Shown in pieces: positions 27,351 to 30,300 of a DNA stretch of 64,000 nucleotides. A program made the translations under genes and the position numbers. This DNA is from SAR324 cluster bacterium (GTDB lineage Bacteria > SAR324 > NAC60-12), in the NCBI GenBank assembly GCA_015231885.1, contig JADGAT010000012.1, positions 5,890-69,889 of the forward strand, written 5' to 3'. Position 1 is the first letter of the stretch; each line of letters starts with the position of its first letter. The notes below the pieces were generated by a model. It was not told the origin of the DNA. It did no database searches and worked only from the letters and a program-made list of their open reading frames with translations.

Positions 27351-30300
27351 TTCTCAATGAGACTGAAGTGGACCAGTTGTTGAATCATTTTAACAACACC
27401 AGGGCAGATTTTCCCAAAGACAAAACCCTTGTTCATCTGTATGAGGAACAGGCGGCAAAAACTCCCGATGCGATTGCTGTAGTTTTCGATGATCAGGGAT
27501 ACACGTATCAGGAGATCAATGAAAGGGCCAATCAACTCGCCCATTTCTTGAAAAATCGCTACTACATCGGACCAGGGGATTTTGTGGCAATCATTCTCGA
27601 TCGCAGTGAATGGATCGTAGTCGCGATGCTGGGGATTCTCAAGGCAGGGGGAGCTTATTTACCGATTGAACCCGATACGCCGCTCATTCGAATTCAGCAT
27701 ATGCTTGACGACACCAGGGCATCAGTGGTCTTGAGCAAAGAAATGTTGGTTGGAAACCGCTCATTTTCTCACTATCAGGAGGATATTTCCAATTCCATCA
27801 CCCCATTCATAGCTCCGGCAAGACCCACTATCATCGATCTGGATTCAATCCCTCACCCCAACCGGACTTTGATTGACTATGATAAATACGCCCCTCACAT
27901 CCAGCAGGCGATGGTCAGTAATTGCGTTTCGGTGATGGCCACTCGAGGCTGCCCGTTCAAGTGTGCATACTGTCACATGATTATGTCTAAAACGCACAAA
28001 TTTCGCACTGCAGAACATATTTTTGAAGAAATTGCGATGCTTTATGAGACTGGTTGCCGACGGTTTTCTTTTGTTGATGACATCTTCAATGTCAATCGCA
28101 AAAATACCAAAGATTTTTTTAAGTTGGTGATCGATCATAAACTGGATGTTCAGTTCTTTTTTCCCAATGGTGTTCGAGGAGATATTCTCAGTCCTGATTA
28201 CATAGATTTGATGGTGGAGGCAGGGACGGTCAGTATGGCTTTTGCCCTGGAAACCGCTTCTCCAAGATTACAAAAATTTATTGATAAACGAATGAGGATC
28301 GATAAATTGAATGAGGCAATTCAATATACCACGAAAAACCACCCGCATGTGATCACGGAATTGTTCTCCATGCATGGGTTCCCTACAGAGACTGAGGAAG
28401 AAGCAATGATGACGCTTGATTTCATCAAGAGTATTCACTGGCTTGATTTTCCCTATGTCCACATGGTCCATATCTATCCCAATACAGAGATGGTCAAATT
28501 GGCCGCCCAGGCCAATATTTCGGAAGAGGCAATTGAACGATCTAAAAGTCTCTACTATCATGAAATTCCCGAAACAATACCATTTTCCAAGAGCTTCACT
28601 CGAAAATATCAGGCTGCCTTTGTCAATGATTATTTTCTCAATCGAGAACGATTATTGTCGGTCCTTCCCAATCAGATGAAGGTGCTCACTGAAAACGAAA
28701 TTGTTCAAAAATATGATAGCTATCTACCTGTTGAGATTCAATCCTTCGAGGATCTTCTCAATTTTATCGGAGTCCAAAAAGGAGACTTGGGAGAAGTAGA
28801 ATTTCGAAAAATCGAAGAATTCCATGTCCCGCATCTGAATGACAAGCTCAAAAAATATTTTCCCGGTTCTCAACCTGAACCGGGTGCATACAAAATTTTA
28901 CTATTGGATTTGTCGCAGTTTTTCAGTCATGAAAGCTACATGATCGATCACCTGATCGAAGTGCCATTGGGGTTAATGTGTCTCTTGACCTATCTTGAGG
29001 AGAAACTTGGAAATAAAATAGAAGGGAAAATTATTAAATCCCGATTGGATTTTGACAACTTCAACGAATTGAAAAAAATAATTGAGGACTTCCAACCGGA
29101 TTTGATTGGCGTGCGGGCCCTCAGTTTGTACCGCGACTTCTTCCACAAAACCATTTCTTTAATTAGACAATGGGGAATTGATGTTCCCATTGTGGGAGGG
29201 GGACCTTATGCCAGCAGCAGTTATACAACTATGTTGAGCGATTCCAATATCGATATTTTAGTCAATGGTGAAGGCGAAGAAACTTTTTATGAACTGATCA
29301 AGATCATCATGGACAATGATCGAAAATTGCCCGAAACAGAGGTTTTAAAAAGGATTCAAGGCATCGTCTTTGTGGAAAACAAAAAGCAGCTCTTTGCCGA
29401 GAAGGCTTTTTACCGCCACGTCCTTTTCCTAGAGTATTTGGAAGAAACCCTGTCTCAACAGCCCTCTGAAAATTTGAACAGCCATCCTGTCCCTCAAGAT
29501 TTAGCTTATGTCCTCTACACTTCAGGATCAACAGGATTTCCTAAAGGGTGTCTGATTACCCATCAGAATGTGGTGAGGTTGATCAAAAACGACAAGCATT
29601 TGTTTGATTTTAACAATCAAGATGTTTGGATCATGGCCCATTCCTACAGTTTTGATTTTTCAGTGTGGGAACTCTACGGTGCAATGCTTTATGGAGGCAT
29701 GGTGGTTATTCCGCTTCGGGATGAAATCCAGGACACCGCAAAATTTTTAGGAAAAATAAAAAAGTACCAGGTCACCATTCTGAACCAAACTCCGCCAGCT
29801 TTTATAAATTTTATTAAACAGGCGATCAATGAGGAAGAAAAGCGACTGGACGATCATCTGAGATATGTAATTTTTGGAGGAGACAAATTTGAACCTTCCT
29901 ATATGAAGCCCTGGGTTGAGGTGTATCCCTTATCCAAAATTCAGCTCATTAATATGTACGGAATTACTGAAACCACCGTTCACGTCAGTTTTTGCCGAAT
30001 CACTGAAAGTGATATATTCTCCCCCGAAGTCATCAGTCCGTTAGGACATCCTATTCCGGAAACTACCGTCTATATCTGTGACGAAAACATGAACCTGTTG
30101 CCTGTTGGTGTCCCTGGAGAAATGTATGTGGGTGGAACTGGATTGGGGAAAGGATACCTGAATCAGCCGGAATTGACCTCCCAGCGTTTCATCAGCAATC
30201 CTTTTGAAGAAAACAGTCGCCTTTACAAGACAGGGGACCTTGGAAGATGGCTTTCTGATGGGAGCTTGGAATACCTGGGGCGTAATGACGATCAGGTACA

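Follow-up and report, generated by a model that had tools for sequence, protein, structure and literature searches.

A radical SAM and B12-binding enzyme nested in the adenylation domain of a SAR324 peptide synthetase belongs to a large, uncharacterised family

Interrupted adenylation (A) domains are textbook bifunctional domains of nonribosomal peptide synthetases (NRPSs). A catalogue published in 2020 comprised seven families, all with class-I methyltransferase (M) inserts, placed between the A-domain core motifs a2 and a3, a6 and a7, or a8 and a9 (PMC8341866). A 2024 review added oxidase (Ox) and ketoreductase (KR) inserts, described M inserts as acting only on the residue bound to the thiolation (T) domain, and gave TioN and MarQ as a2–a3 examples (PMC11355689). 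The words “radical” and “cobalamin” occur in neither text. Here we analyze an NRPS gene of a marine SAR324 cluster bacterium (assembly GCA_015231885.1, contig JADGAT010000012.1) whose A domain contains, between a2 and a3, a Radical S-adenosylmethionine (SAM) domain followed by a B12-binding domain; it lies in a stretch of 64 000 nucleotides (contig positions 5890–69 889), hereafter the window. The original prediction, made from the letters of the window, had noted no earlier description of such an insert, and this agrees with the coverage of the interrupted-A-domain reviews, which is limited to M, Ox, and KR inserts (PMC8341866, PMC11355689). Among open-access papers and bioRxiv preprints we found no description of a radical SAM/B12 insert in an A domain, although subscription journals could hold one.

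Like the target, TioN (thiocoraline) and MarQ (maremycin) combine a second catalytic, SAM-dependent domain in the a2–a3 loop with a functional A fold. Their inserts are Rossmann-fold class-I methyltransferases, whereas that of the target consists of ∼560 amino acids (aa) with a radical SAM barrel, a B12-type Rossmann domain, and an Fe–S cluster, and it is expected to act on unactivated carbons instead of N, O, or S. It is not among the described kinds of insert (class-I M, Ox, KR, or monooxygenase). The second group for comparison is formed by class-B radical SAM enzymes. CysS (cystobactamid), DscE (discodermin), PoyB/C and EreB (proteusins), and ApyD share with the target a CxxxCxxC core and a PF02310-type Rossmann domain with GGxP/GEGE motifs, but they are free-standing enzymes in which the B12 domain precedes the core, whereas the target runs from radical SAM through a helical region to B12, departs from the canonical class-B order, and is embedded in an A domain. 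AprD4 has a canonical N-terminal B12-like domain and an aminoglycoside substrate, and is a 1,2-diol dehydratase rather than a methylase; its B12-like domain is not known to bind cobalamin, so that the fold alone is no proof of cobalamin use. Mmp10, the arginine C-methyltransferase of methyl-coenzyme M reductase (MCR), is a free-standing enzyme with a protein as substrate, and the cobalamin domain at its C-terminus is not known to be of the PF02310 Rossmann type. Radical SAM methylases that depend on cobalamin and serve NRPS pathways are known solely in free-standing form. Among them, CysS binds a pantetheinyl substrate (PMC12846815), and DscE C-methylates Ala/Val residues of finished discodermin, its pairing with an NRPS being called “an unusual enzyme combination” by the authors (PMC12858407). 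The target insert resembles a fusion of the two ideas, the interrupted A domain and the free-standing class-B methylase, and falls outside both catalogued groups.

The target gene (26636–32254, forward strand, as are all of its features below) encodes a single-module NRPS of 1872 aa in which the open reading frame (ORF) list, the translation, and Pfam give the order half condensation (C) domain, N-terminal A piece [A(N)], radical SAM, B12, C-terminal A piece [A(C)], peptidyl carrier protein (PCP), and epimerization (E) domain. By exact look-up the product is NCBI MBF0287236.1, named “amino acid adenylation domain-containing protein” and encoded on a contig of 71 883 bp. The central claim of the original prediction, a radical SAM/B12 enzyme nested between a2 and a3, was confirmed: Radical_SAM (PF04055; aa 436–597, 27941–28426; E 8.4e-18, 65.5 bits versus a cut-off of 29.5) and then B12-binding (PF02310; aa 776–887, 28961–29296; E 1.2e-9, 38.5 bits versus 32.1) both match there above the Pfam cut-offs. 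The same scan of the target protein matched no methyltransferase, KR, or oxidase family in the insert, which with its Radical_SAM and B12-binding domains differs from known methyltransferase- and KR-type inserts, as had been anticipated. The AMP-binding match is split in two, the first stretch marking A(N) (27386–27787, motifs a1 and a2) and the second placing profile positions 151–384 at aa 931–1175.

To set the insert borders, the protein was aligned with three of the window's uninterrupted A domains and with free-standing homologues of 540–580 aa, with which the insert is colinear; the borders fall at ∼27788–29470 (∼aa 385–945), so that the location first proposed (27860–29460) stands with slightly wider limits. 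GC content is even across both borders, and the site between a2 and a3 is a recognized one. The predicted CxxxCxxC motif, binding a [4Fe-4S] cluster, is present as ATRGCPFKCAYC (aa 435–446), although it spans 27938–27973 rather than 27950–27973. Further on in the barrel are RRFSFVDDIFNVN (28058–28096), AFALETASPRL (28238–28270), and GFPTETEEE (28376–28402); a helical region (aa ∼641–745, 28556–28870, from predicted secondary structure) leads to the Rossmann domain with its GGGPYAS and GEGE motifs, which includes DLIGVRALS (29099–29125), VPIVGGGPYAS (29183–29215), and DILVNGEGEETFYEL (29252–29296), and a structured linker (aa ∼916–945, 29381–29470) returns the chain to the A domain. All peptide strings quoted in the original prediction were recovered from the translation, either exactly at the coordinates given for them or no more than a few bases away.

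On either side of the insert lie the A2 motif LKAGGAYLPIEPDTP (aa 335–349, 27638–27682) and the A3 motif LAYVLYTSGSTGFPKG (aa 956–971, 29501–29548), and a1 to a10 are all readable in the translation (YTYQEI, LKAGGAYLPIEP, LAYVLYTSGSTGFPKG, FDFS, NMYGITE, GEMYVGGTGLGKGYL, YKTGDL, GRNDDQVQIRGFRVELGEI, LPDYMIP, and NNKVDR). A(C), which carries a3–a10 and matches AMP-binding and AMP-binding_C (29471–30595), yields on code extraction DFWNIGMVH, the classical Thr code, as had been read from the sequence. It is followed by a PCP with a GGDS phosphopantetheine site (30638–30820; PP-binding, aa 1335–1395, E 5.6e-11) and by a condensation-family domain of the epimerization type (30866–32194; Pfam Condensation, aa 1411–1853; TIGR01720). 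This terminal domain contains HHLVIDG and is 41% identical to the window's other E domain versus 27% to the C domains, bearing out its earlier assignment as an E domain. A minus-strand ORF of 147 aa (27101–27544), antisense to the A(N) region, was taken as a chance ORF.

Structure prediction with AlphaFold2, which had been suggested as a check, gave confident models of the insert alone (pLDDT 86, pTM 0.86) and of aa 251–1400 (pLDDT 88.5, pTM 0.85), the latter with confident linkers on both sides of the insert (pLDDT ∼90 in the return linker). When the full model is compared with the uninterrupted A domain of PDB 4d4g, the two structures superpose across the insert (Foldseek, TM(target) 0.92); the two A pieces thus rebuild a normal, intact A fold in the model, from which the insert branches off as an excursion. 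The rigidity of this model suggests that the embedded enzyme and the A domain form an integrated bifunctional unit.

Within the insert, a CxxxCxxC motif in a partial TIM barrel places the protein in the Radical SAM superfamily, and a PF02310 domain in the same polypeptide is a feature of class B. The Rossmann domain structurally matches the cobalamin domains of TokK, CysS, and MetH and may bind cobalamin. None of the solved structures among the matches aligns over the radical SAM and B12 domains together; the closest solved relative is AprD4 (PDB 6fd2), for which the barrel alone aligns, and the match to Mmp10 (PDB 7qbs) is weak (rmsd 8.4). The three cluster cysteines are invariant in 22/22 aligned sequences, and in an alignment of 50 sequences two are invariant and the third is ≥ 90% conserved. 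The Rossmann domain shows no variation across phyla in its GGGP and GEGE motifs. Neither the 22- nor the 50-sequence alignment contains a further conserved cysteine in the insert, which therefore lacks an auxiliary-cluster motif.

The window comes from a metagenome-assembled genome (MAG), a circumstance that would favor taking the insert for an assembly chimera, a pseudo-domain, or an inactive structural remnant, but this explanation is extremely improbable. The reading frame is unbroken through the insert, GC content is uniform, and NCBI assembly GCA_028282505.1 and the Logan assembly of run SRR20820736 both contain an 81%-identical orthologue with a matching domain string. Comparison of the two proteins by part gives 87% identity for radical SAM, 84% for B12, 77% for A(C), 64% for E, and 62% for the half-C domain, making the insert the best-conserved segment of the target protein, and its catalytic motifs are invariant. 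Homologues number in the hundreds, from many phyla and including complete genomes of cultured strains. An assembly chimera is excluded by this recurrence together with the orthologue in two independent assemblies.

A search for homologues with the order A(N)-radical SAM-B12-A(C), another check that had been proposed, returned them in large numbers. In a domain map of genome loci, ∼45 of 58 have the layout C-A(N)-unit-A(C)-PCP, where the unit is the radical SAM and B12 domains together. These loci belong to Aminicenantes (at least 10 copies in one MAG), Clostridia and other Bacillota, Halanaerobiales, Omnitrophota, Bacteroidales, a Pedobacter MAG, Planctomycetales, Elusimicrobia, Deferrimicrobium, and the cultured Desulfosediminicola flagellatus, and the layout also occurs in Desulfobulbia. 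One genome collection that was scanned lacks the window's own genome, and the best match there was 57%. Homologues of aa 251–1400 are mostly 1400–1940 aa long, the majority 1850–1900 aa; nearly all of the 120 full-length homologues listed have the full set of C, A, radical SAM, B12, and PCP, and the complete genome of Clostridium tagluense encodes one of the homologues. A HMMER search over 1.84 billion representatives returned 5050 proteins at E ≤ 1e-30, and the best 150 of these are all NRPS-sized (725–7588 aa) with a full-length unit, some with two. When proteins are clustered at 50% identity, at least 150 clusters from many phyla have the layout, and the nested design is present in well over a hundred database proteins and probably in more than a thousand. 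Source names of the database homologues are all generic. The nested architecture is real, old, widespread, and under purifying selection, and the target is one member of a large, generically annotated, uncharacterized family that extends well beyond the window.

The order of radical SAM before B12, the reverse of the canonical class-B order, was found in the ten homologues scanned. The original prediction had recognized this order and regarded insertion into a loop as consistent with a circular permutation. The order stands, whereas a link to the insertion does not: free-standing proteins of 540–580 aa, 46–55% identical to the insert over their whole length, share the radical SAM-then-B12 order, and insertion is therefore not the origin of the permutation. 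By sequence comparison, the order is a trait of the family. Canonical-order B12-radical SAM enzymes are encoded as separate genes in related clusters.

The unit also occurs outside the nested layout, as examined in five loci (L022, L032, L017, L024, and L053) and three proteins (P0085, P0092, and P0126). It is arranged as A-unit-PCP in L022 and L032, follows an A(N) fragment and precedes a PCP in L017 and P0085, and is fused directly to a PCP in P0092. L024 has free-standing family members inside an NRPS cluster, and in L053 of [Clostridium] polysaccharolyticum DSM 1801 a stand-alone unit gene comes directly after an A-PCP gene and is followed by a canonical B12-radical SAM gene. Two tandem stand-alone genes and a protein of 1122 aa, whose size suggests a double unit, were also seen. 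A neighbor-joining (NJ) tree places the stand-alone proteins of Pelagibacterales and other marine MAGs as the outgroup to a single, poorly resolved radiation of NRPS-associated units, in which closely related inserts sometimes reside in A domains of differing specificity.

The outgroup clade (L040–L045, L048, and L051, from Pelagibacterales and other marine MAGs or single-amplified genomes) is 42–46% identical and located outside NRPS clusters. Its neighbors include a DegT aminotransferase, a carbamoyltransferase, a polysaccharide deacetylase, a short-chain dehydrogenase/reductase (SDR), adenylate-forming ligases, a thiamine pyrophosphate (TPP) enzyme with an iron-dependent alcohol dehydrogenase (Fe-ADH), and FliD, suggesting glycan or flagellin-modification islands. 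A phosphonate-methylase role was considered for these marine proteins and rejected: a TPP enzyme and an Fe-ADH adjoin the gene in L041, but the others are in sugar-modification-like islands.

We propose that the embedded domain works in cis, as a class-B-like radical SAM enzyme tailoring the residue tethered to the PCP and most likely methylating it at carbon, and we assign this reading a probability of roughly 0.55. Specificity codes extracted from the 120 full-length homologues, a sample biased towards Thr through the query, were Thr in 39, Ile/Val-like in 24, Gln in 7, Pro in 6, Leu and Asp in 4 each, Glu in 3, Asn, Phe, and Lys/Orn-like in 2 each, and Ser in 1, with several unknown codes; no Gly/Ala code is among these hosts, and such codes are rare as well in 47 A domains of these loci that have no insert. 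These uninterrupted A domains activate the same amino acids as the interrupted hosts, which points to the radical SAM-B12 unit as an optional tailoring device with no fixed side chain. Such a range of host side chains fits a reaction at a position that every host residue has, for example C-beta.

Whether the enzyme serves its own module can be judged from how far inserts follow the host code. Insert identity averages 58.7% between same-code and 56.4% between different-code pairs, a difference reached in 0/1000 label permutations, and the A(N) control is flat. The nearest neighbor of an insert has the same code in 58/119 cases, compared with 35 to 41 cases with the A-domain control segments, A(N) and A(sub), and 10 by chance. 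This tracking favors action on the residue of the module itself and makes the neighboring Val, which the original prediction had also entertained, a less likely target. An enzyme whose substrate is the donor from upstream (Val or the peptidyl chain), a free precursor, or the peptide once released, with the A loop as a tolerated fusion site, is an unlikely alternative, although DscE does work post-assembly on a finished NRPS product (PMC12858407), the L024 and L053 clusters have free-standing members, and related inserts are sometimes found in A domains of different specificity. It is countered not only by inserts following the host code better than both A-domain controls do but also by the repeated fusion of the unit straight to a PCP, by the confident rigid model, which points to an integrated bifunctional domain, and by class-I M inserts at the same site, which modify the T-bound cognate residue (PMC11355689).

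The nearest curated families give an indication of the chemistry. Most are cobalamin-dependent methylases (NCBIfam: ApyD, 4e-32; PhpK, 3e-28; BzaD; P-methyltransferases; KedN5; and the MCR Gln C-methylase), which is compatible with C-methylation of the tethered residue. Several points weigh against the proposal of in-cis methylation. ApyD, the best match, scores 111 bits versus a cut-off of 750, and all 25 NCBIfam matches are far below their cut-offs, so that the insert stands outside every curated family; BchE is among these matches, and class-B enzymes also carry out cyclization, ring contraction, and other reactions; and the code-tracking signal is modest and in part reflects co-descent of whole modules.

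The embedded domain may instead act on the PCP-tethered residue by radical chemistry other than methylation, with cobalamin optional, a possibility that we regard as appreciable but clearly less probable. Candidate reactions are oxygen-independent hydroxylation, dehydrogenation/desaturation, dehydration, epimerization, and C–C bond formation. It is kept alive by AprD4, the closest solved relative, being a radical SAM dehydratase, and is also consistent with the presence of BchE (an anaerobic cyclase) and ladderane-type radical SAM proteins among the best NCBIfam matches, with no curated methylase cut-off being reached, and with the concentration of the family in anaerobic and uncultured lineages, where oxygen-dependent tailoring would be unworkable. 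The predominance of methylases among the nearest families speaks against it, however, as does the lack of conservation of the auxiliary Fe–S motif of many non-methylating radical SAM enzymes. Individual reactions meet further objections: hosts that activate residues devoid of a hydroxyl (Val, Ile, Leu, Pro, and Phe) rule out a general dehydratase, beta-hydroxylation of Thr should, on chemical reasoning, give an unstable product, and epimerization by the insert would be redundant with the E domain of the same module. This E domain is retained in 23 of the 120 modules, that of the target included, and its requirement for an alpha-hydrogen counts against both alpha-methylation and epimerization by the insert.

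For methylation in cis, we envisage the following course. The A domain would adenylate L-Thr and load it on the PCP of its own module, whose arm would bring the Thr thioester, or after condensation a peptidyl thioester containing Gly-Val-Thr, to the embedded radical SAM site. Reductive cleavage of SAM would generate a 5′-deoxyadenosyl radical able to take a hydrogen from a side-chain carbon that is not activated, with C-beta, which all hosts share, as the most plausible target. Methylcobalamin would then supply the methyl group, converting Thr to 3-hydroxyvaline, and the E domain would epimerize the alpha-carbon before downstream transfer. Extended to the family, the proposal is that these proteins represent a large class of in-line NRPS tailoring domains, permuted cobalamin-dependent radical SAM enzymes housed in A domains that, while the chain is being elongated, methylate or modify by other radical chemistry the unactivated carbons of carrier-bound amino acids of almost any kind; we consider the chances for and against this generalization to be evenly balanced.

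The surroundings of the target supply the presumed substrate chain. The upstream assembly-line protein (15955–26601, forward strand) runs from ketosynthase (KS) and acyltransferase (AT) domains to C-A(Gly)-PCP-C-A(Val)-PCP-C, by Pfam and the codes DILQLGVIW and DALWFGGTF, the latter being the Val-like code of the module before the target, and would hand its chain to the target module. It ends in a complete C domain (25240–26601, HHIICDG), yet the target opens with the C-terminal subdomain of a C domain alone (26636–27385, aa 1–250; partial Condensation match). By BLASTP, aa ∼43–249 of the target match positions ∼217–446 of the window's C domains, and a motif scan locates the sole HHxxxDG motif of the protein at aa 1540, inside the E domain. 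A half-C N-terminus is common to 92 of the 120 full-length homologues, and several loci show a full C domain at the end of one protein and half-C-A(N) at the start of the next; docking or service as an A-domain platform are candidate roles.

Stand-alone radical SAM genes of 555–615 aa are inserted between NRPS module genes in related clusters (L081, 15907–17601; L018, 3014–4732 and 10265–12109; L058, 10402–12120; L030, 9014–10675; and L006, 6053–7873). The next protein begins with a half-C domain in L018 and L006 and with a complete C domain in L081, whose stand-alone gene has the canonical order, a B12-like domain and then CxxxCxxC. The window has no stand-alone radical SAM gene downstream of the target ORF, and the locus of the 81% orthologue has one.

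Elsewhere in the window, reverse-strand genes (32324–34893) separate the target module from a second assembly-line stretch (35889–62898). This comprises A-KR-PCP (35889–39737), two modules of KS-AT-dehydratase-KR-acyl carrier protein (39722–51207), a β-ketoacyl synthase (KAS) III (51204–52259), a sulfotransferase (52132–53148), an SDR (53464–54168), an acyl ligase (54165–55505), C-PCP-C-A(Tyr)-PCP-E (55518–61670), and a 2-hydroxyacyl-CoA dehydratase component (61696–62898). A protein of 954 aa with a TLC-type nucleotide-transporter domain and HEAT repeats (5771–8635) has an identical copy on a 7-kb contig of GCA_002753255.1, and an ABC transporter of the cyclic-peptide-export type (9667–11292) is encoded upstream of the NRPS genes.

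If the proposal is correct, the radical SAM/B12 insert brings radical chemistry at unactivated C–H bonds into the in-line repertoire of NRPSs, and structure prediction would shift for many orphan clusters of Aminicenantes, Clostridia, SAR324, and other lineages, for which current tools would predict plain Thr, Val, or Pro at the interrupted positions. The cultured members (Clostridium tagluense and Desulfosediminicola flagellatus) make the hypothesis directly testable. Class-B radical SAM enzymes are hard to pair with substrates, and A-radical SAM-B12-PCP would be a natural enzyme–substrate fusion in which to study them as well as a portable cassette for engineering C-methylated peptides. The family would constitute a nonribosomal counterpart of proteusin-type hyper-C-methylation, and it would rank among the main routes by which tert-Leu, beta-methyl, and beta-hydroxyvaline-type residues enter the peptides of anaerobic and uncultured bacteria.

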